From: a virus
Taxonomy: Duplodnaviria > Heunggongvirae > Uroviricota > Caudoviricetes
DNA: 24,323 bases
IMG/VR virus record: IMGVR_UViG_2645727563_000003
Location: 1-24,323 of that record
Strand: one strand, 5' to 3'
Shown: one piece after another, positions 127 through 9,351 of the stretch
Position numbering within the stretch: position 1 is the stretch's first letter
Layout: every line of letters begins with the position of its first letter
Translations under genes and position numbers: made by a program
The notes under the pieces: model-generated
Told to the model about the DNA's origin: nothing
The model's database searches: none
What the model saw: only the letters and a program-made list of their open reading frames with translations

Positions 127-492
127 TCACGCTGCCTCTTTAATGTTGGCGGCTATCCATGCCGCCGTGTGCTGTTTAACCTGGTCCAGGTCGATGTATG
201 TGCCAACATATTGACTCAAATCCTGCAAGGTACCGATAAATGCATCGGTGCTCTGATCGACGAATTTATCAGCCAGGAAATCAGCAACCAGTTTTGGCAC
301 ACCATCATGTTCCGAAGGTTGTTTTTCCTCGCCACTACCACCGCCGGACGCGCCGTACCCCATCTGTTGCATGATCTGGTCAATTTCATCGCTGATATCC
401 AGCAACTCCATGCCACTCGCGGTCGCCGCTTTGGACATCAGAGCATCCAACTTATCGCTGAGATCCATTAACTCAATAGCTGATAGTGTCAT
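127..492 (-). CDS. Small acidic protein, last gene of Dar-like operon in window (DdrA position by synteny)
   Basis: 121-aa ORF; ATG overlaps the stop of the upstream 639-aa gene by 4 nt (489-492). Product name is from position only. Confidence 0.6.
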   Translation of the reverse strand: MTLSAIELMDLSDKLDALMSKAATASGMELLDISDEIDQIMQQMGYGASGGGSGEEKQPSEHDGVPKLVADFLADKFVDQSTDAFIGTLQDLSQYVGTYIDLDQVKQHTAAWIAANIKEAA

Positions 493-2408
493 GCCGCTAC
501 CCCCGCTTTCTGGATTGCTACCAACAGATCAGCCAGGTGGCGAGCTGCGCCGTTAACCAGCTCTTCGTTTTCCTCAAAACGTCCGGCAGCCTGAAGGGCT
601 GCAATCGCTTCCCGGACATTGCCCCGGGCGTTACGGATCTCCGCCATGTCAGTGCTTTGTATATCCATCACGTTATTGAGATATTCAATGGCTTTATTAG
701 CCTCTGCATCTGCTTCGCTAACCGTTTCATCAGGCTGTGCCGGGGCCGGTTCTGGCTGAGTAATCTCACCGACTTCGGCCTGCAATGCATTGATCATGCT
801 CTGCACCATTTTCTCGGTGCCAGCGCCCCCAGGAAACGCAATATTGGGGAAAGTTTTTTGAAACTGAGTTTTCAGCATTACGCGGAACTCGTCTGGTGAG
901 CTGGTGGCCAGCTCCAGAGCTTTTTGTGCATATTTGCCAAACGGACCATTAGTAAGTGTCTTCGCCAGGAAGTCGAAAGAATCCTCGCGAGGCAATAACT
1001 TCAGGTCGTACTCACTCATTTGCTGATCAGAAAGCGGGGTATCGTAAGTAGCAATGCCGTAGCGTGCATATTCATAATACGGGTCACCTTCATCAGGGCG
1101 CGGCAGAATTGCTTTGTTACCTTCAGGTATTGCGCCAGGGGCCGCCGGACGCATTTGCAGGGCATATCGATATGCACCTACAGAGACTTCTGGTTCAGGC
1201 GAAGAGCTACCGGTATCCTCCGCTGGTTCAGGTTCGACGTTTTCCGGTTTATGTTCTTCTGGTTGGACCAGGTATTCCGATACATTACCCGCTTTATAGG
1301 CTTTAAACAGCTTGCCGATCGCATCTGCCATGTCCACACCCTGTATGGATTTAGCCTTGATCATGTATACGCTGCCATCCGGATCGGTTAACTGGATATA
1401 CCCTTCGCCGCCCCCAATGAATTGCTTCATTGATGCACCATTACTGAGCGTCACTTCCCCGTCCATATGCATACGATTTTTGATACTGGCAAGGCGATCC
1501 GTCAGCGCGCGAGAGTGCCCACCAGTCATCCCCGCTGGAGCAATGGTATCGCGCCCACCAGTGCGATTGAGCTGATCAATCTCCGTCTGCAAACGCTCAT
1601 TCTCTTCATAAAGAGAATCCGCTTCCGATGCAACAGCGTTAATTTTCTGCTCCAGATCTGCCTTCTGCCCTTCTACCGCTGCCACCTGATCCGCGAGGTC
1701 GCTCATGGCATCCTCTTTCTGGTCACTGTCAGCCTGTAGTTGGGTTATTTCATCAACAAGGGCTTTTTTCTTCTTCTGCGCACGCTGGAATTTTGCCGAG
1801 TTTTTCTCTGCAAGGTTGGCAAGTTTCATGGTGACCTGCGCCAGCGTCATATCACGTCCACTCATCGGAGCAACGGTGTGAGTAACGTCTTTTTTATTCA
1901 GTAAGAACTGGAAAGCAACCAGCGTATCGCTATTGGTGATCCGGTTTTCCGCTGTCGGGCTATGAAACAGAATGCTGATAGTCTGACCATCACTGAGCGG
2001 AATAATGGCTGGCAAGACCGGCAGCCCGTTAACGTTACGTGCCCGGCCAATTTCAGCGCCGCCGATCGCGCGCGCGCCGCTCTGGGCCACATCCCCCGTT
2101 TTATCACTCCCCGCAGAGATTCCGGTACCATTCAGCTTCTGGTTCAATGCCCGGACAAATGCCTGCATGGTCCGGTGTAACTGCAAACGAGTAGAACTAA
2201 TCGCCTCCAGTAAATCCGTAGCACACCAGTGGATCGGCGTGTCATAGAAGAACGTAGCCTCGATTTCCTCCAGGGTGTTGGATTCCGTCATCAGATAGCG
2301 GTCCTCACCGGCCATTAATGCGCGATATTCATCATCAGTCACTGGCGGGGGAAGCACGTCAAGCCCAGGCTTGATCGTCACCCCTTTATTGATATTGAAC
2401 TGTTCCAT
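489..2408 (-). CDS. darA: DarA-like protein (candidate virion-packaged antirestriction component)
   Basis: 639-aa ORF, AGGAAA 8 nt upstream of ATG. Central coiled-coil segment; N-terminal region paralogous to the upstream 203-aa protein (shared LxDGQ block and KNSAKFQ motif). Sits downstream of holin-like genes as recalled for the P1 darA operon. Assignment by synteny and architecture, not alignment. Confidence 0.55.
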   Translation of the reverse strand: MEQFNINKGVTIKPGLDVLPPPVTDDEYRALMAGEDRYLMTESNTLEEIEATFFYDTPIHWCATDLLEAISSTRLQLHRTMQAFVRALNQKLNGTGISAGSDKTGDVAQSGARAIGGAEIGRARNVNGLPVLPAIIPLSDGQTISILFHSPTAENRITNSDTLVAFQFLLNKKDVTHTVAPMSGRDMTLAQVTMKLANLAEKNSAKFQRAQKKKKALVDEITQLQADSDQKEDAMSDLADQVAAVEGQKADLEQKINAVASEADSLYEENERLQTEIDQLNRTGGRDTIAPAGMTGGHSRALTDRLASIKNRMHMDGEVTLSNGASMKQFIGGGEGYIQLTDPDGSVYMIKAKSIQGVDMADAIGKLFKAYKAGNVSEYLVQPEEHKPENVEPEPAEDTGSSSPEPEVSVGAYRYALQMRPAAPGAIPEGNKAILPRPDEGDPYYEYARYGIATYDTPLSDQQMSEYDLKLLPREDSFDFLAKTLTNGPFGKYAQKALELATSSPDEFRVMLKTQFQKTFPNIAFPGGAGTEKMVQSMINALQAEVGEITQPEPAPAQPDETVSEADAEANKAIEYLNNVMDIQSTDMAEIRNARGNVREAIAALQAAGRFEENEELVNGAARHLADLLVAIQKAGVAA

Positions 2409-2409
2409 G

Positions 2410-3012
2410 TTAATTTCCTGCTTTCAGTTGCTTAAGACGGCGTTTGAGTTCGCCATTTCGGGCCTTTTCGTTATTGAGTCGGCCTGTCTCCTTATCCAGC
2501 TTCGCCCGCAAATCAGTGATCTGCTGTTGATTGAAAGACACCGAGTTCTGCGCTGATTTATAAGCGGCAACCACCTGAGCATTCCGCTGTTTTGCCTCTT
2601 GCAGGCGCTGAAAGTTGGATTTAACTGCCGGTTTCTTGTCTACCGGATTGGCAACACGCTTCGCTTTGGCGATCAGTGATTTCTGGAATTTTGCGGAGTT
2701 TTTGCGAGCCGCCTGTCCCATGACGGTACCAAGCGTCTTGATATCCGGCGACTGAGCGTTAGGAATAGCTTTTCCATTCAGTTTCACAGACGATATATCG
2801 CCAGTATCGTTTACCTGTATGGCAAGAATTTGTCCGTCGTTAAGAACCAGCTTTGCGGTTTTAACTTTAACGCCATCTTTCGTTGTTGCGCGGTTGCTGG
2901 AGTCAACCTCAATTACCGTAACCCCGGTTTTATTGATCGCCGCGATAAGGGATTTCAGCCCCTTTTCATTAACCTGGTCAAAATCGACCGTTGCATACTT
3001 ATTTTTCGTCAT
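2410..3012 (-). CDS. hdf: Hdf-like protein (paralog of the N-terminal part of the DarA-like protein)
   Basis: ORF open from 3021 (MCQM...); second ATG at 3012 has better spacing to an AGGA. Shares LNDGQILAIQ and RKNSAKFQ with the 639-aa protein, then a basic coiled-coil tail. Confidence 0.55.
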   Translation of the reverse strand: MTKNKYATVDFDQVNEKGLKSLIAAINKTGVTVIEVDSSNRATTKDGVKVKTAKLVLNDGQILAIQVNDTGDISSVKLNGKAIPNAQSPDIKTLGTVMGQAARKNSAKFQKSLIAKAKRVANPVDKKPAVKSNFQRLQEAKQRNAQVVAAYKSAQNSVSFNQQQITDLRAKLDKETGRLNNEKARNGELKRRLKQLKAGN

Positions 3013-3442
3013 CTGACACATCCTGTGCGAGATTTATTACGTAACTTCTGCGGATTTGCTGAGTAACAGGGAAAATCCGATACAACGGGTTAATGAACGA
3101 GTCGCCATGCGTAACCATGACGTTGAAATGCCACAGTCGCTCTCCTTTACCCATATATTCAGTGGGTATGTACAACCATTCACTGTTTTCGCCCTGTTCA
3201 GCCGACGTCAGACAACGTTGTTCGCCTTCAATCACTGTCGTCGGCTTCTGAACATCGCGGATCCAATATCTGACCGTTGCGCCGCGCAAAAACGGGAATT
3301 TAGACCGGTATTTGAACGGCACCCGGATGAAACCCGGTTTAATTTCCACATCACCAAGTTCTAAATGCGTGATGTCCTTGCGTTTTAGCAAATAGCGATC
3401 GGCTAAGGCTAACGCAAGAACGCATACACCCCAGCCAATCAT
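2999..3442 (-). CDS. lydB: LydB-like protein with N-terminal hydrophobic segment (possible antiholin/lysis regulator)
   Basis: 147-aa ORF; ATG overlaps upstream stop (ATGA at 3439-3442). N-terminal MIGWGVCVLALALADRYLL looks like a signal anchor. No lysozyme or peptidase motif recognised. Confidence 0.5.
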   Translation of the reverse strand: MIGWGVCVLALALADRYLLKRKDITHLELGDVEIKPGFIRVPFKYRSKFPFLRGATVRYWIRDVQKPTTVIEGEQRCLTSAEQGENSEWLYIPTEYMGKGERLWHFNVMVTHGDSFINPLYRIFPVTQQIRRSYVINLAQDVSDDEK

Positions 3443-3768
3443 TTCCCGCCTCCCTTTTTCACCAAACTTGTAAGAACATTCAGAATGCTATCGATATTCA
3501 CTCGTTTCATCCCTGAAATCACCTCATGACCGTTATTGCTGGCTATCGTTACCATTAAGTACGTAATTGATAACTCCCAGCCCTCGTGTTGCCCCAATAG
3601 GTACGCCACCGCGCCAGCTGTCACTGCAACAAAGATCTCCGTAACCAATCCCAACAAATTGCCAGACTGGCGACCGTCTCGGACATCCATCAGGAACGTG
3701 CCTATCCCACCAATTACTGAAAGCAGGAGCGCAATAGCAACTGGAGCTAATTCCTGTGTGTCAAGCAC
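3439..3768 (-). CDS. lydA: Holin-like membrane protein (LydA-like), GTG start
   Basis: 109-aa ORF with three hydrophobic segments. No in-frame ATG near the 5' end; GTG at 3768 is preceded by AGGAGGG at 5-nt spacing. Confidence 0.6.
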   Translation of the reverse strand: MLDTQELAPVAIALLLSVIGGIGTFLMDVRDGRQSGNLLGLVTEIFVAVTAGAVAYLLGQHEGWELSITYLMVTIASNNGHEVISGMKRVNIDSILNVLTSLVKKGGGK

Positions 3769-3773
3769 AAGTT

Positions 3774-3794
3774 CCCTCCTACGTTGTCAGGAGG
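3774..3794 (-). promoter_or_regulatory. SD-sequestering hairpin upstream of the holin-like gene
   Basis: On the mRNA: CCUCCU - 8 nt - AGGAGG(G) - 5 nt - GUG start; the anti-SD hexamer is perfectly complementary to the SD. Confidence 0.45.
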
Positions 3795-3835
3795 TAATGG
3801 TATGCAAAGTAACTTCTCAACCGGTCATTTGTTGC

Positions 3836-4117
3836 TTAAGAGGCATTTCTATTGAGGTGCGAATCGATAATCCTTTGTAACTTTTCAAGAATGAGCCTGT
3901 TATTGATGCTGCAAATAATAGTCACGCAATTCTGAAGACTTTCATCCATACCCTTATATTCCGCGAAATACATGCCTATAAAGCCTGCAAGTACGGCAGC
4001 AATACACTCGGCCATCAATTGCCTGCATGACGCTTCGTAACGTTTTTCACGAACCCCATTCAGAAACGAATGCACCCCGCCAAGGATGGAGAGGAGCATT
4101 ATTGTGAAATCACACAT
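3836..4117 (-). CDS. Second holin-like membrane protein, paralog of the 109-aa gene
   Basis: 93-aa ORF; AAGGA 8 nt upstream of ATG 4117. Aligns full-length with the 109-aa protein (shared LLS.IGG...FL..VR..R, AV.AG, TI.S.N, IDS.LN). Confidence 0.6.
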   Translation of the reverse strand: MCDFTIMLLSILGGVHSFLNGVREKRYEASCRQLMAECIAAVLAGFIGMYFAEYKGMDESLQNCVTIICSINNRLILEKLQRIIDSHLNRNAS

Positions 4118-4244
4118 AACTATTTCCTTAATAGTGAATTAAATATCATTGGGAAACGGTATGTACTTTGTGATTTCCACACATACTGGTTTTTGTTAAT
4201 TAAAATCCGCAGCTTGCTATAAATAACGATAGTGAGCAGAAAAT

Positions 4245-4292
4245 ATGCTAATAGGCTATGTACGCGTATCAACAAATGACCAAAACACTGCT
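4245..4292 (+). pseudogene. cin: 5' remnant of a Cin/Gin/Pin-family serine DNA invertase gene
   Basis: ATG at 4245 encodes MLIGYVRVSTNDQNTA, the characteristic invertase N-terminus; the frame then diverges and stops after 47 codons, with no catalytic domain. Confidence 0.7.
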
Positions 4293-4372
4293 TTACTCAG
4301 ACGCCACCGGAAGGAAAAATACGTATTTGCGGAGAGAATGGACAACCCGCATGGGGGGATGTTCCTCCTCCA

Positions 4373-4588
4373 ACGAAAGAAGAGCTAATGGCTATTGCAG
4401 AAGCCAGGAAATTAAGCTTAAAGGCTCAAGCGGACTCTGAAATCGCCTGGCGATAGGATGCGGTTGATGCCGGTATCGCGACGGATGAGGAAACCGCCGC
4501 GCTTTCTGAATCGAAGAAATGCCGGATCCTGCTGATGCGCGTTGATACAGCAAAACCCGTATGGCCTGTCAATCCGCAGGATATTTAA
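4373..4588 (+). pseudogene. 3' fragment of a tail fibre assembly gene (U'-like), no start, internal TAG
   Basis: Frame 2 encodes ...[64 protein letters not shown], resembling the conserved Tfa C-terminus (lambda Tfa ends ...[27 protein letters not shown], from memory). In-frame stop at 4454-4456. Confidence 0.6.
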
Positions 4589-4802
4589 CGGGGGCGTTGT
4601 AGGTGGTGACATATTCAAGCAGTTCTGTTGGATATGTCACCGTTGCTGCATCTCGCTCTACGTTAAATGTATCCGCTCCCCAGATAACACACTCCCTCAA
4701 AAATGCCTCCACCTCTGGCGAGACTTCAACCGCATCATCAGGTCGCTCTTGTTCAGAAACATAAAAACCAACGGTCGTTGGGCTGAAATACATATTCTCC
4801 AT
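4569..4802 (-). CDS. Truncated tail fibre assembly protein (U-like), N-terminal 77 aa only
   Basis: ATG 2 nt after the fibre stop. [15 protein letters not shown]... is Tfa-like; the ORF ends inside the antisense of the opposite-strand tfa fragment, so 3' ends overlap by 20 bp. Confidence 0.5.
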
Positions 4803-4804
4803 AT

Positions 4805-7800
4805 TTAGTATCCTATTGCTTCAAAATGCAAAGTCGGAATTTCGCCGAGATTGGGTGTCGTATACGACACAGTGAATCGCGTTCTTGATACGTCAGTGCC
4901 AGAATCAGTATCGCGATGCGTTGCCAGTGATTTCCCAGCCATTGATGACTGGGTCGAAAAGCTGTAACTCGCTAGTGTTGCCAGCGTTGCTATTTGTGCA
5001 TTTGGGAATTGTCTGGGGAAATTAACCCTGTAGTAATGGGTGTAGTACGTCACCCCACCAAGCACCTGCGCGTTGAAGTTACCAACTGGTGTCAGTGTCA
5101 CAGTGCCAACCTGTCGAATCATACCATTTGGGAGAATATCCCAGGCAGTTTGTCCGTTTCGCGACATACCAAATGCGGACATGTCCGGGAGTTGATTATT
5201 ACCGGTTCCGACATCCCGTTTTGCCGCTTCTCCCAATTGAAGGTATGCGAGAAGACCAGCAACATCCTTTCCACTCAAATTAGTCAGCGTATTGTCCAGC
5301 GGTTGTTTGCCCGCCAGTGCGCTCTGTACTTCGCTTTTGCTGTAGGCATCCAGATCTTTAGGCGTAAGCGTAATATCCTTCGTGCCGTCAAACGGAACGC
5401 CGTTGATATTCCGTGCAGTCTGTAGTTTTGTGGCAGTTGCAGCATTACCAGTGGTGTTCTGATTACCCGTAGTGTTTACACCTGGAAGATTAATATTGGC
5501 GGAGCCATCGAATGACACGCCGCCTATTGTGCGTGCTGTTTGCAGTTTTGTTGCAGTTGCAGCATTGCCAGTAGTGTTCTGATTACCAGTTGTATTCACA
5601 CCAGGGATGCTGTCTTTTTTAGTATATATCTGAGCCCAGCCCTCTTCGAACCCATAGCCATCACGTGATGAACGGTAATACAATCCACCATTTTTATGGT
5701 GCGCTCGGATTTGGAGAGTCCGACAACTACCTACGCCTGTATAAAAATTTGCAACGATATAAGAATCCCCGGAGCGTGTAACATTATACGCACCTGATTC
5801 GGCATTCCACGGGACCGCACCACTAGTATCGGCATAAGTTCCAGTAGCGCGTAGAGCAAAAGCAGATACATTTTCAGCTGTTAGTGTTATATCAGCAGAA
5901 CCATCAAAAGACACGCCGCTTATTTTTCTAGCAGTTTGCAACTTCGTAGCCGTTGAAGCATTGCCGTTCAAACTACCATTGATGCCGCCAGTAACATCGA
6001 GCCCATTACCGATCGTAACAGCTCCATTGGCATTGTTAATGATAAGCGGCCTTAACCTATTATAGGTTCCCAGGCTGTTACCCGAATCGGTCAACATGAA
6101 ATATGTGTTTGAGCCATCGTTTCGGATAAAGAATCCATAGTTGCCATAGGCAATGCGCAGACCATTCCCCGATTTTGAAATGATCTCACCAGTAGCCGTT
6201 AAACCGCCGTTGAGATTTCCTCCGGTTATTGGTAATGCGCCGACATCCGTGGCGGTCGGTTTAATGTGCGAACTGTAAATGACATATACCGTTCCATCAG
6301 TAAGACCAGTTGGTTTATTCGCTGTATAAGTTGGTGATGTATGAATCGTTACGCTGGCGTTACTGGTATAATCCCATTGAATATTTACACCAGTCGCATA
6401 ATTTCCGATTGCAACGTAAATATCGTAAGTATCACCAGATGTATTGACCCAGGCAAAATTTGTAAACCCTGTCGATGTGCGCTGCCATAAAGCACCAGTA
6501 ATCCCCTTCGGATTACCATTACCTGCACGCAAAACAAGTTCAGATATACCTGCCTGTTGAGGTGACCCCACGTTAAATCCCGCGCCACCAATCAACGTAA
6601 TTGAAACAACAGAACTCGCCTGTGGCATGGTTACCGTTGCTAATTTGAACCAACCAGCACCACCGCTGAATGACATTGTTGTTGAGTTGATCGTGCCTAT
6701 AGACCTTGGAGTTAGCTCAATGTTTTTAGAACCGTCAAACAATACCCCATTTATAGTTCTAGCGGTTTGTAACTTGGTCGCTGTAGCCGCGTTACCGGAT
6801 GTATTCTGATTACCCGCAACGTTAACACCAGGTAAATTAATATTCGCAGTACCATCAAAGCTAACTCCGCCGATAGTTCTTGCCGTCTGTAGTTTTGTAG
6901 CGGTTGCTGCATTGCCAGTTGTATTCTGATTGCCAGTGGCATTCACACCAGGAATGGAGTCCCTTGATGTATATACCTGCGCCCACGCTGACCATGCCGC
7001 ATCAGTGTTATCTCTTCGGGAGCGAATGAAAACCGGCGCATGTGCACCGCTCGTACCACTCCAGCCAATAAGCAACTCGCCCTCACCAGCAGCACTCGCA
7101 CCTTTCATGTGCAATACGTTGCCATACGTGGTCGGGTAGCTATTGTTGTACGCCTCGTACATTTGAATGCCAGCAGTACCCTGAGTAGAGCCACTTAACG
7201 CCGTTACGCGCCCGCGTGATACCAACGTATTGATATTAACGTCCCCTGAACCATCAAATTTAACACCGTTGATGTTTCTTGCCGTCGCAAGTTTTGTCGC
7301 GGTAGCAGCATTCCCGGTGGTGTTCTGGTTACCTGTTGTATTTACACCTGGAAGGTTGATATTGGCCGAGCCATCAAATGCCACACCGCCAATCGTGCGT
7401 GCTGTTTTCAATTTCGTCGCGGTGTCGGCGTTCCCTGTCAGTGCCCCGGTGATCCCGCCGTTGAAAGTCTGGCGTGCACTCCATGTGTTAGCCGTACTCA
7501 ACAGGGGGATCTTTTCACCGCTGGTACCGAGTTCTCTTAAACCAAGGTATTGGATAACGGCCAGTGTGCTTGTTTTAGCCAGAATATCGCGACCGACTGA
7601 CGTTAAATCAGTCTGCGCTACCGTATCCTTACCAGTGAAATAAGGCAGTTTGTTTGCACCAGTCGCAAGGGCAGCGAGCGCGGTTAAAGTTGCATCCAGA
7701 GGCTGTTTGCCTGCCAGCGCATTTGTCATTGTTGTCGCAAAGTTCGGGTCATTGCCCAGTGCTGCTGCAAGCTCATTCAGGGTATCAAGAGCTTCAGGTG

Positions 7801-8905
7801 ATGAGCCGACCAATGCAGAGATAGCAGCTCTTACATAAGCGGTCGTAGCAATCTGCGTGTTATTCGTACCCTGTGCAGCGGTAGGCGCAGTAGGTATTCC
7901 CGTTAATGCAGGACTTGCTAAAGGAGCTTTAAGAGCCAGAGCATTGTTGATAGTTGTGCTGAAATTCGGGTCGTTATTGATCGCAGCCGCTATTTCTTTA
8001 AGCGTATCCAGTGTGCCAGGTGCACCGTTGATAAGTGCCGTTATAGCTGCCTTAACAAAGGCTGTATTTGCGATCTGCGTGCTGTTTGTACCTTGCGCTG
8101 CCGTCGGCGCGGTTGGCGTTCCTGTCAGACTCGGGCTTTCTATTGGCGCTTTGGTATCAGCCAGCTCTTTTACAGACTTAACGGCTTTAGGGGTAGCCGC
8201 CATTGTTTCGCTGTCGCTGTTAGTTGCGCTACTGAGCTGAACTAATCCCTTTTGTGTTGTGCTTGCATCCTGCGCCGTATACTTGCTTTTAGCCAGATCG
8301 TAGGCTTTTTTAACCGCCAGCGAACTTGCAGCGACATCACTTCTGGTACTGGTTACAGAGTCGGAAATTTCAATGCCTATCGCGAGATCGATGCGGTCGG
8401 ATACATCTATCATTTCCTTAGTAATAGCAGATACGCCAGCAGGGATATTCACCGTACAAACAAGCAGTTCCCCATCTCCTAACTGATATGAATCGGTATA
8501 GGTTCTGGCAACAAATTCAGCCGCATGAATATGTGACGCGGTATTAACCTGATAAGAATCTTCTCCAAGGAGGTATCTTCCCTTCAGCACAATTGCATAT
8601 TTCTTACCTGCGCTAAGTGCAAGAGAAATATCCTTACGCTGCTGAATAGTTACCTGGTAGAATTCACCAATATTCACTGACGCCGCGCCAGCGGTTTTAT
8701 CACCATCCACTGAGGTGATTAACAGGTTCATCCCACCGCCAGGCTTAGGAAAAAAACCGGCATAAAATCCAGGGTCAACAATTCCCCTGAATTTTCGGTT
8801 TAGCGCGGCTGACAGATATGGTTCGTGGTATTGCACATCAGCCACCAGAGCCAACGACTCGGGTGATGGGTAAGTAACCGATGTGACAACTGTAACGTCA
8901 TTCAT
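4805..8905 (-). CDS. Tail fibre protein (S-like) with collagen-like repeats
   Basis: Start chosen at ATG 8905 (MNDVTVVTSVTYPSPE...), AAGGA 10 nt upstream, 11 nt after upstream stop; the longest ORF extends to 8992 but overlaps the upstream gene. At least seven ~40-aa repeats (PGVNTTGNQNTTGNAATATKLQTARTIGGVSFDGSANINL) and two ~75-aa N-terminal modules. Confidence 0.8.
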   Translation of the reverse strand: MNDVTVVTSVTYPSPESLALVADVQYHEPYLSAALNRKFRGIVDPGFYAGFFPKPGGGMNLLITSVDGDKTAGAASVNIGEFYQVTIQQRKDISLALSAGKKYAIVLKGRYLLGEDSYQVNTASHIHAAEFVARTYTDSYQLGDGELLVCTVNIPAGVSAITKEMIDVSDRIDLAIGIEISDSVTSTRSDVAASSLAVKKAYDLAKSKYTAQDASTTQKGLVQLSSATNSDSETMAATPKAVKSVKELADTKAPIESPSLTGTPTAPTAAQGTNSTQIANTAFVKAAITALINGAPGTLDTLKEIAAAINNDPNFSTTINNALALKAPLASPALTGIPTAPTAAQGTNNTQIATTAYVRAAISALVGSSPEALDTLNELAAALGNDPNFATTMTNALAGKQPLDATLTALAALATGANKLPYFTGKDTVAQTDLTSVGRDILAKTSTLAVIQYLGLRELGTSGEKIPLLSTANTWSARQTFNGGITGALTGNADTATKLKTARTIGGVAFDGSANINLPGVNTTGNQNTTGNAATATKLATARNINGVKFDGSGDVNINTLVSRGRVTALSGSTQGTAGIQMYEAYNNSYPTTYGNVLHMKGASAAGEGELLIGWSGTSGAHAPVFIRSRRDNTDAAWSAWAQVYTSRDSIPGVNATGNQNTTGNAATATKLQTARTIGGVSFDGTANINLPGVNVAGNQNTSGNAATATKLQTARTINGVLFDGSKNIELTPRSIGTINSTTMSFSGGAGWFKLATVTMPQASSVVSITLIGGAGFNVGSPQQAGISELVLRAGNGNPKGITGALWQRTSTGFTNFAWVNTSGDTYDIYVAIGNYATGVNIQWDYTSNASVTIHTSPTYTANKPTGLTDGTVYVIYSSHIKPTATDVGALPITGGNLNGGLTATGEIISKSGNGLRIAYGNYGFFIRNDGSNTYFMLTDSGNSLGTYNRLRPLIINNANGAVTIGNGLDVTGGINGSLNGNASTATKLQTARKISGVSFDGSADITLTAENVSAFALRATGTYADTSGAVPWNAESGAYNVTRSGDSYIVANFYTGVGSCRTLQIRAHHKNGGLYYRSSRDGYGFEEGWAQIYTKKDSIPGVNTTGNQNTTGNAATATKLQTARTIGGVSFDGSANINLPGVNTTGNQNTTGNAATATKLQTARNINGVPFDGTKDITLTPKDLDAYSKSEVQSALAGKQPLDNTLTNLSGKDVAGLLAYLQLGEAAKRDVGTGNNQLPDMSAFGMSRNGQTAWDILPNGMIRQVGTVTLTPVGNFNAQVLGGVTYYTHYYRVNFPRQFPNAQIATLATLASYSFSTQSSMAGKSLATHRDTDSGTDVSRTRFTVSYTTPNLGEIPTLHFEAIGY
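5425..7375 (-). repeat. Interspersed near-identical 120-240 bp coding repeats inside the tail fibre gene
   Basis: Copies at about 5425-5665, 5935-6025, 6715-6955 and 7255-7375 encode the 40-aa repeat; they also generate the long spurious plus-strand ORFs here. Confidence 0.7.
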
Positions 8906-8916
8906 CAAGCATATCC

Positions 8917-9351
8917 TTATGCTGTAGTCGTGTTTATGGCCATAACTGCGGTATATGTTTTGCCCACATACAGCGAGTCTTCCTGGACACAAATAATGGC
9001 GATTGGCTTGTTCTCGTTATCCAGAACAACCAGAGTGTTGAATGGGTAGTTTTTCCCTTTCTGCAACTGGCTTTGATCAAGGTCCATTCGGACAGTAATT
9101 ATCCCGCCTGAGTAGGTTGGGACGAGGTTGATGGTGCAAAATTTACTGGTCAGTTCTGCCAGCTCGAAAGCCTTTGGCAGTTCTCCAATCTCATAAGTGC
9201 CATCTCCTTTCTTAGTAACCAGTGAACTGGTACCGAAAACGGCCTTGCTGATTAAAAATCGAGAGCCTTTGTTAATGGACGATTCAGCGCGCCGCTGATA
9301 GTAATAGTCCAACAACTGACTCTTATAGAGGTTTGTTGAGACGTCAGACAT
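8917..9351 (-). CDS. Tail/baseplate-associated protein (R position by synteny)
   Basis: 144-aa ORF directly upstream of the fibre gene in the same operon; no motif recognised. Confidence 0.55.
   Translation of the reverse strand: MSDVSTNLYKSQLLDYYYQRRAESSINKGSRFLISKAVFGTSSLVTKKGDGTYEIGELPKAFELAELTSKFCTINLVPTYSGGIITVRMDLDQSQLQKGKNYPFNTLVVLDNENKPIAIICVQEDSLYVGKTYTAVMAINTTTA

Follow-up and report, generated by a model that had tools for sequence, protein, structure and literature searches.

A probable relic of a Cin-type invertible tail-fibre switch in a lineage of P1-like phage-plasmids

Known fibre switches and the locus compared

In phage P1, the Cin/C-segment system comprises cin, the crossover sites cixL and cixR, the sis enhancer, and the segments Sv/Sv' and U/U', and in the P1 annotation cin and the invertible C-segment are flanked by the lyd lysis genes on one side and the fibre operon R-S-U on the other. 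We analysed the same position in a 24,323-nt stretch of viral DNA (IMG/VR record IMGVR_UViG_2645727563_000003, positions 1 to 24,323; hereafter, the window) that represents a P1-like phage-plasmid (Punavirus), with lydA, lydC, R, S, and baseplate genes and ~99% identity to P1 and P1-like plasmids. The locus is very probably the inactive remnant of an invertible tail-fibre switch of the Cin type (Din family), in which a join at the sequence TTTAC removed the invertase and the second fibre tip and left the host range fixed.

The window resembles the P1 system in the position of the locus between lydC and S, in the cin promoter and the first 52 nt of the gene, in a cixR-identical site at the corresponding position of S, and in the convergent arrangement of tip/chaperone pairs. 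In contrast to P1, cin is reduced to 9% of its length, the enhancer is halved, and cixL, Sv', and the 0.6-kb inverted repeats are missing; moreover, the window carries a smaller tip cassette of the P2-prophage type (~1.4 kb) with a second crossover site at 5228-5253. The Mu Gin/G-segment and e14 Pin/P-segment systems use invertases of the same serine family and 26-bp sites with a central dinucleotide, and the cin remnant aligns to pinE with ~91-93% identity over ~45 nt; however, those systems are complete, whereas the window holds a relic. H8 plasmid A, which has a Min-like recombinase, shares its tip cassette with the window, but the window has no recombinase and its sites are direct instead of inverted. 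The Min multiple-inversion system of p15B presumably resembles the window in having more than one crossover site in the fibre gene, a likeness suggested by notes in the P1 annotation.

Two genes at the locus are related to the P2 gene G/lambda Tfa family. One is a fragment of a tail-fibre assembly gene (tfa_A) that corresponds to the Caudo_TAP C-terminal domain but lacks the tip-binding N-terminus and contains a stop; the other, at the position of gene G, encodes a 77-aa protein that has the N-terminal motif of the family but lacks the Caudo_TAP C-terminal domain. The structure of the Mu Tfa protein was reportedly described by North et al. in 2019.

Loss of this kind of switch is recurrent and has already been described. 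The P1-like plasmids pSvP1, pTZ20_1P, and pJIE250-3 carry truncated, reversed, or modified cin switches and miss the C-segment, and host-range switching is presumed lost in them (Venturini et al. 2019, PMC6906374). As in the window, a partial invertase open reading frame (ORF) is present, and the phenomenon is the same; however, the changes in those plasmids are mediated by insertion sequences, whereas the window has a clean microhomology junction, an intact fibre operon, and a plaque-forming relative.

A megablast search with window positions 3800-5200 as the query matched Escherichia phage phi456 and 19 PLSDB plasmids at 99.9-100% identity; the plasmids measure 91-119 kb and are mostly non-mobilizable. 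P1 and its variants matched only the first 497 nt of this query (99.2-99.8% identity), a stretch annotated there as lydC and DNA invertase. The 92.5-kb plasmid pDC71-1 is collinear with the whole window at 96-99% identity and served as its sibling replicon.

The cin remnant and its junction

The features of the cin remnant are as follows.

4123 to 4236, plus strand: cin promoter region and ribosome-binding site (RBS), kept intact (P1 annotation transferred through the gap-free alignment of 4101-4296)
4245 to 4296, plus strand: 5' stub of cin, a serine invertase gene, codons 1-17, MLIGYVRVSTNDQNTAL (homology to P1 cin)
4245 to 4388, plus strand: residual 47-codon ORF starting MLIGYVRVSTNDQNTAL, in which the cin stub is read out of frame into the tfa fragment
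4263 to 4296, no strand: what is left of the Fis-dependent recombinational enhancer, located in the 5' coding part of cin (P1 annotation mapped; homology ends at 4296)
4292 to 4296, no strand: junction at TTTAC, 5 bp of microhomology (window aligned with P1 and E. kobei)

Window positions 4101-4296 align without gaps to P1 31517-31712 with 99.5% identity over 196 nt, an interval that takes in lydC, the cin promoters, the RBS, and the cin start. Within it, 4245-4296 corresponds to nt 1-52 of the 561-nt P1 cin gene with a single mismatch (E12D), and homology in the ORF at 4245-4388 stops after codon 17. The original prediction, made from the sequence before any database search, had read the plus-strand ORF from 4245 as the N-terminus of a Cin/Gin/Pin invertase that then diverges; this reading stands, although the remnant that it counted as 16 codons is 17 codons long in the alignment to P1 cin. 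Because promoters and RBS are included in the 196-nt match, the similarity reflects common descent. The alternative that the MLIGYVRVSTNDQNTAL start belongs to a chance ORF unrelated to cin has only the short length of the ORF in its favour and can be dismissed: in addition to the 196 nt covering promoter, RBS, and the first 52 nt, 497 nt match at 99.8% to P1 variants in which the sequence is annotated as DNA invertase.

Based on homology to P1, the predicted promoter P2cin has its -35 element at 4123-4128 and its -10 element at 4144-4149; the predicted P1cin has a -35 element (TTTCCA) at 4174-4179 and a -10 element (TAAAAT) at 4201-4206, and the predicted RBS (GAG) is at 4234-4236. A promoter/terminator scan of 3750-5000 returned one promoter-like site, compared with 2.2 expected. 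The enhancer appears incomplete, with 34 of the 72 bp annotated in P1.

The TTTAC at 4292-4296 is common to the two partners, as nt 48-52 of cin and nt 125-129 of tfa_A. From position 4297 onward, P1 reads AACGAAACG and the window reads TCAGACGCC, whereas the match to the tail-fibre assembly gene begins at 4292, at nt 130 (codon 44) of a gene encoding 141 aa. The two joined pieces differ in reading frame; the cin ORF has 47 codons and is nonsense from the junction to 4388.

Two other explanations of the breakpoint were discarded. A Cin-catalysed deletion at a quasi-cix sequence inside cin (core AAACA-CT-GCTTT, 4283-4294, two mismatches) is ruled out, as identity to P1 runs beyond the central CT as far as TTTAC and the tfa partner has no cix-like sequence; microhomology joining is therefore preferred. 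A breakpoint common to the H8/XJ plasmids was suggested by BLAST alignments ending at 4292, but a multiple alignment shows that those plasmids keep ~175 nt of decayed cin, and their events therefore differ from that of the window.

The tfa_A fragment

4292 to 4588, plus strand: tfa_A pseudogene fragment, the alternative chaperone gene, codons 44-141 of 141 (alignment; Pfam Caudo_TAP)

Downstream of the junction, the frame of the fragment reads FTQTPPEGK...WPVNPQDI and ends with a stop codon at 4586-4588. From 4292, identity is 95.1% to an E. kobei plasmid (NZ_CP043512) and 97.4% to a P2-like prophage of E. coli PEC178 (over 4292-5244). With the internal TAG read as Q, the fragment matches Pfam Caudo_TAP (PF02413) at 79.4 bits, relative to a gathering threshold of 22.1 (E 3.4e-22; profile positions 36-131). 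This bears out the earlier claim of a same-strand 3' fragment of a tail-fibre assembly gene with TAG in place of Q: the nonsense codon is at 4454-4456, and the homologues in the E. kobei plasmid, H8 plasmid A, and pCUVET16-559.2 have CAG. PGAP labels the same stretch of pDC71-1 “tail fiber assembly protein, internal stop.”

The fragment has neither a start codon nor codons 1-43, which include the N-terminal tip-binding part, and its reading frame is broken by the TAG. Five window-specific substitutions lie between 4454 and 4528: in addition to the nonsense change, three are missense changes (W to S at 4511-4513, Y to C at 4520-4522, and V to I at 4526-4528) at residues that are conserved in three otherwise divergent intact homologues. 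The adjoining 77-aa gene, by comparison, has zero differences from the copy in the H8 plasmid. This pattern fits relaxed selection on the fragment, in a sample too small for a formal test. Positions 4297-4470, which include the TAG, are 100% identical in 19/19 PLSDB plasmids and in 24/24 complete E. coli genomes with the junction; the TAG is therefore older than the spread of the lineage.

The plasmid AR_0118 (NZ_CP020051.1, locus ~3765-4640) shows an independent pseudogenization of the same silent chaperone gene. There, ~190 nt of the invertase gene are fused into tip A, and tfa_A has a TGG-to-TAG change two codons upstream of the CAG-to-TAG change in the window.

Fibre gene S and the surviving crossover sites

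4805 to 8905, minus strand: tail-fibre gene S, 1366 aa from the P1-like ATG (MNDVTVV...) (ORF, Pfam, P1 alignment)
5228 to 5253, no strand: small-cassette crossover site, TTCTCCCAATTG AA GGTATGCGAGAA, score 16/20, encoding LLAYLQLGE in S
7532 to 7557, no strand: site identical to P1 cixR, TTCTCTTAAACC AA GGTATTGGATAA, score 18/20, encoding VIQYLGLRE in S

The ORF listing extends S to a TTG at 8992. The C-terminal tip of S (~4805-5240) is the cassette-borne tip, here called B, which PGAP annotates as gp53-like. We scored all 26-mers against the cix consensus TTCTCNNAAACCNNGGTTTNNGAGAA (maximum 20, with a threshold of at least 15 for a site). Exactly two sites in the window reached the threshold, compared with a mean of 0.08 in shuffled windows, and the whole 92.5 kb of pDC71-1 contains the same two sites and no third. 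Whereas the original prediction had the crossover sites deleted, this is the case only for the invertase-proximal site; the other two survive as S coding sequence. A weaker cix-like 26-mer, TTTCCACACATA CT GGTTTTTGTTAA at 4174-4199, overlaps the P1cin -35 element; its score of 13/20 is at chance level (5 expected per window), and it may presumably be the pseudo-cix site described in the P1 cin promoter.

The site at 5228-5253 marks a boundary of homology. The E. kobei and PEC178 cassettes cease to match at 5244, within the site, and the alignment to H8 plasmid A changes strand between its two parts, 4439-5244 and 5225-8000. The strand switch falls exactly at 5228-5253, which identifies this as a genuine crossover site and the two plasmids as differing by an inversion. 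The same cassette boundary is common to P1-like and D6-like phage-plasmids and P2-like prophages.

Both sites have the central AA on the plus strand and thus have the same polarity (direct orientation), and no inverted repeats of at least 40 nt were found in 4100-9000. With both sites in the same polarity and no partner site, inversion is impossible.

S also contains three direct copies of a 278-nt repeat (5361-5638, 6708-6985, and 7227-7504), with 62-73% identity to the reference copy. Plasmid pDC71-1 is missing the segment equivalent to ~5557-7262 of the window; the flanking alignments overlap by 162 bp, which suggests a repeat-mediated deletion, and the S gene is annotated as broken by PGAP.

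Missing components of the switch

We used TBLASTN to search the window and pDC71-1 for the parts of the switch. With P1 Cin and the H8 recombinase as queries, the only match in either sequence was the 19-residue stub, and no recombinase-family protein appears in the PGAP annotation of pDC71-1. The alternative tips of PEC178 and H8 identified only the expressed tip B in both sequences, and the first 43 residues of tfa_A had no match in either. An intact invertase and second tip acting on this locus from elsewhere were thus sought in both the window and its sibling, and neither was found.

A functional Din-family switch has a full serine invertase (~185-190 aa, with catalytic and helix-turn-helix domains), inverted sites, and two tip/chaperone pairs, and all three are lacking here. 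Descent from such a switch is supported by nucleotide homology of the invertase, the sites, and the cassette. With direct sites, no recombinase, and no complete enhancer in cis, the segment cannot invert, and the host range is therefore fixed. The earlier proposal of a decayed Cin-type inversion system with the fibre fixed in one form agrees with the lack of an inverted partner site, an invertase, and a second tip. Its more specific statement that the alternative tip, crossover sites, and invertase were all deleted is correct for the tip and, apart from the 17-codon stub, for the invertase.

The persistence of two high-scoring sites, together with the frequency of pinE-like genes in E. coli chromosomes, would allow for a switch that works in trans, with a host Din-family invertase such as Pin of prophage e14 acting on the surviving pair; Din invertases are interchangeable, and Gin, Cin, Pin, and Hin complement one another. 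We consider this very unlikely. In addition to the shared polarity of the sites, the cis enhancer is halved, no alternative tip is available, and enhancer-dependent invertases disfavour deletion between direct sites. Furthermore, every plasmid with the junction is collinear across records (19/19 over 3800-5200; pDC71-1 over 131-5557), and the only S deletion seen, that in pDC71-1, ends in the 162-bp repeats, away from the sites.

The locus aligns to phage phi456 in a single piece with 99.9% identity, and this phage forms plaques on E. coli K-12 MC1061 that are tiny and blurry (PMC10967188). The locked fibre therefore works.

The 77-aa accessory gene

4569 to 4802, minus strand: intact 77-aa fibre accessory gene (“mini-Tfa”) (ORF, homologues, conserved cassette position)

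The 77-codon ORF starts two bases 3' of the S stop codon, and its 3' end overlaps that of tfa_A by 20 bp (4569-4588). Its product is 100% identical to WP_001619155.1 (H8 plasmid A and pXJW9B263-2) and differs by two residues from the E. kobei copy. Four intact cassettes were available for comparison (E. kobei, PEC178, H8 plasmid A, and pXJW9B263-2). In these, tip A and tfa_A (136-141 aa) on one strand converge with tip B and the 77-aa gene on the other (tipA-tfaA-> <-77aa-tipB), the cassette is bounded by 26-bp sites in inverted orientation, with a recombinase gene next to it; in the PEC178 P2-like prophage (locus L006, 6018-6583), which has the complete cassette and both inverted sites, the recombinase gene is frameshifted. 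The 77-aa gene directly follows tip B in all cassettes examined. All four intact cassettes have the same 20-bp overlap, which is thus normal architecture; the overlap in the original prediction is real, but it is no sign of collapse.

A search of 5.8 billion proteins identified 34 homologue clusters, and nearly all full-length homologues are 77-80 aa long. The named sources include Escherichia, Citrobacter, Enterobacter, and Phytobacter, with identity down to 59%, and the family has 23 invariant columns distributed over the full length. In P2-like prophages without an inversion system, a 77-80-aa gene stands alone between the fibre gene H and the sheath gene FI, which is the position of P2 gene G; we found this arrangement at four loci (L010 and L012-L014; for example, L010 4001-4243 and L012 4001-4234), where H has a Phage_tail_fib match and a faint Gp53-like_C match. 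AlphaFold predicted a compact alpha/beta structure with a predicted local distance difference test (pLDDT) score of 93. A fold search of the PDB with this model identified no match (best E 2.1), and the BFVD gave only weak matches (E 0.02); these include a 60-aa “tail fiber assembly protein” of Pantoea phage LIMEzero, which is suggestive. The tail-fibre assembly profile PHROG_188 matched only residues 1-31 (E 8e-5), and a Pfam scan of the protein identified no family at E ≤ 0.01, Caudo_TAP included.

On the basis of these homologues, the 77-aa protein is a complete, conserved small accessory protein with no truncation, and we infer that it may act as the chaperone for the B tip. The family may represent a minimal tail-fibre chaperone without a Caudo_TAP domain.

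These results contradict the earlier claim that an opposite-strand tfa gene had been cut to 77 codons, and with it the possibility that both chaperone genes collapsed, leaving the expressed one as a 77-codon N-terminal domain and fibre assembly perhaps compromised. The match of only residues 1-31 to the assembly profile, the absent Caudo_TAP domain, and the tiny, blurry plaques of phi456 would agree with such a collapse; however, a protein that is identical to the copy in intact cassettes, belongs to 34 clusters of nearly uniform full length with invariant residues throughout, is predicted with confidence to be compact, and stands as the sole gene at the gene G position in prophages without an inversion system makes a collapse hardly tenable, and the 20-bp overlap shared with four intact cassettes speaks against it as well.

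The P2-like prophage whose 77-aa homologue is the most divergent has, adjoining its baseplate module, a gene that encodes TIR_2 and SEFIR domains (L010 1-244).

Origin of the junction

In the reading that we favour, one illegitimate recombination at TTTAC would have joined cin nt 52 to nt 130 of a tfa_A gene in the silent orientation. Such an event would have removed cin nt 53-561 (91%), half of the cis enhancer, cixL as the invertase-proximal site, tip A, and tfa_A nt 1-129 (43 codons), as an in-situ deletion that we estimate from P1 and PEC178 lengths at roughly 1 kb. The late operon would then yield one fibre, S with the B tip, followed by the intact 77-aa accessory protein; the orphan tfa_A fragment would later have gained its stop and missense changes, and the stub and fragment would probably have no function.

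Several observations weigh against this history. No intact ancestor with a P1-type cin and cixL beside this cassette was found, and the hybrid cixL predicted for it was absent from IMG/VR and the JGI metagenomes in exact-pattern scans. In PLSDB and the complete E. coli genomes, tfa_A of the E. kobei/PEC178 type was never intact on P1-like plasmids; it occurs in the deletion lineage and on chromosomes, and it is intact in P2-like prophages (10 genomes) and on the E. kobei plasmid. The whole-replicon search used the sibling pDC71-1, 97-99% identical to the window, in place of the window's own replicon. Furthermore, the transcript that the cin promoters would drive across the stub is presumed to be non-functional, and the chaperone role proposed for the 77-aa protein draws on its position and conservation. 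An exact-pattern scan of IMG/VR for the junction itself returned no match.

The distribution of this tfa_A type means that the junction may date from the acquisition of the cassette instead of a later deletion. In that case, a P2-like prophage cassette would have replaced the P1 C-segment, with a left join at TTTAC in cin and a right homologous or site-specific join at 5228-5253, and the locus would never have been invertible. The missing hybrid cixL and the restriction of intact tfa_A of this type to chromosomal P2-like prophages (10 genomes) and one E. kobei plasmid are in keeping with such a scar, as is the 97.4% identity to PEC178 over 4292-5244, which ends exactly at the crossover site. 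However, H8-type P1-like plasmids already have the cassette of tip B and the 77-aa gene (97.8%) and S (97.6%), and thus only 146 nt (4292-4437) need a foreign origin. Acquisition would also require two crossovers as opposed to one, and an unsampled ancestor is weak evidence. We therefore regard acquisition as possible but doubtful; the end state and present function would be the same as after an in-situ deletion.

Occurrence of the allele and of other decayed switches

3836 to 4117, minus strand: lydC holin gene (ORF; Pfam Phage_holin_3_3; 99.5% identity to the annotated P1 lydC region)

The left flank of the relic is lydC, the last intact P1 backbone gene ahead of it. The junction allele was present in 24 of 5426 complete E. 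coli genomes. Sources of the lineage include human blood, sewage, gull, panda, and pig isolates, and it also occurs in Shigella.

When P1 lydC-cin-cixL was used as the query, 480 PLSDB plasmids matched, and 144 keep at least 80% of it contiguous; the partial matches among those listed end ~52, 139, 177, and 212 nt into cin. In the P1-like plasmid pEC15-3 (L007 8096-8754), cin is a pseudogene of 129 nt and a tail-fibre assembly gene is likewise a pseudogene, without its N-terminus; a 1474-aa fibre gene lies next to them. In H8 plasmid A (L003 8443-8879) and at locus L005 (7443-7900), ~175 nt of P1-type cin persist next to lydC as a decayed stub that stops at codon 9, and the stub is bordered on its other side by a Min-like recombinase gene that is intact and runs in the opposite direction; judging from this arrangement, the original invertase in H8-type plasmids is replaced and not merely lost. 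The D6-like plasmids pCUVET16-559.2, W444, and AR_0118 carry the same cassette, locked in the same orientation, and have invertase stubs.

In pCUVET16-559.2 (stub at 6106-6157 of its locus) and W444, which belong to a lineage unrelated to that of the window, the invertase stub also ends at nt 52, with another partner sequence, and this lineage has a 17-bp duplication of the start of the invertase gene. The shared end point may be coincidental, or it may mark a hotspot for deletions or a constrained stretch of ~50 nt at the start of the gene; in the window, the stub overlaps the weak quasi-cix core and lies within the enhancer. If cin nt 52 were a preferred breakpoint or the first ~50 nt were constrained, self-truncation of the invertase could be a recurrent and possibly selected route to locking the fibre. 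In a related reading, transcription from the retained cin promoter could now run antisense across the 77-aa gene and into the 3' part of S. We view these extensions as unlikely.

Implications

Truncated cin genes in P1-like plasmids were known already, and the window adds another example of this decay; beyond annotation, the finding matters little. For annotation, the 26-bp site at 5228-5253 is now documented as a genuine cassette boundary, and the 77-aa “hypothetical protein” can be annotated as a fibre accessory protein at the gene G position that goes with gp53-like tips. A widespread P1-like lineage in which fibre specificity is, very probably, fixed would bear on the prediction of host range for these carriers of resistance genes.

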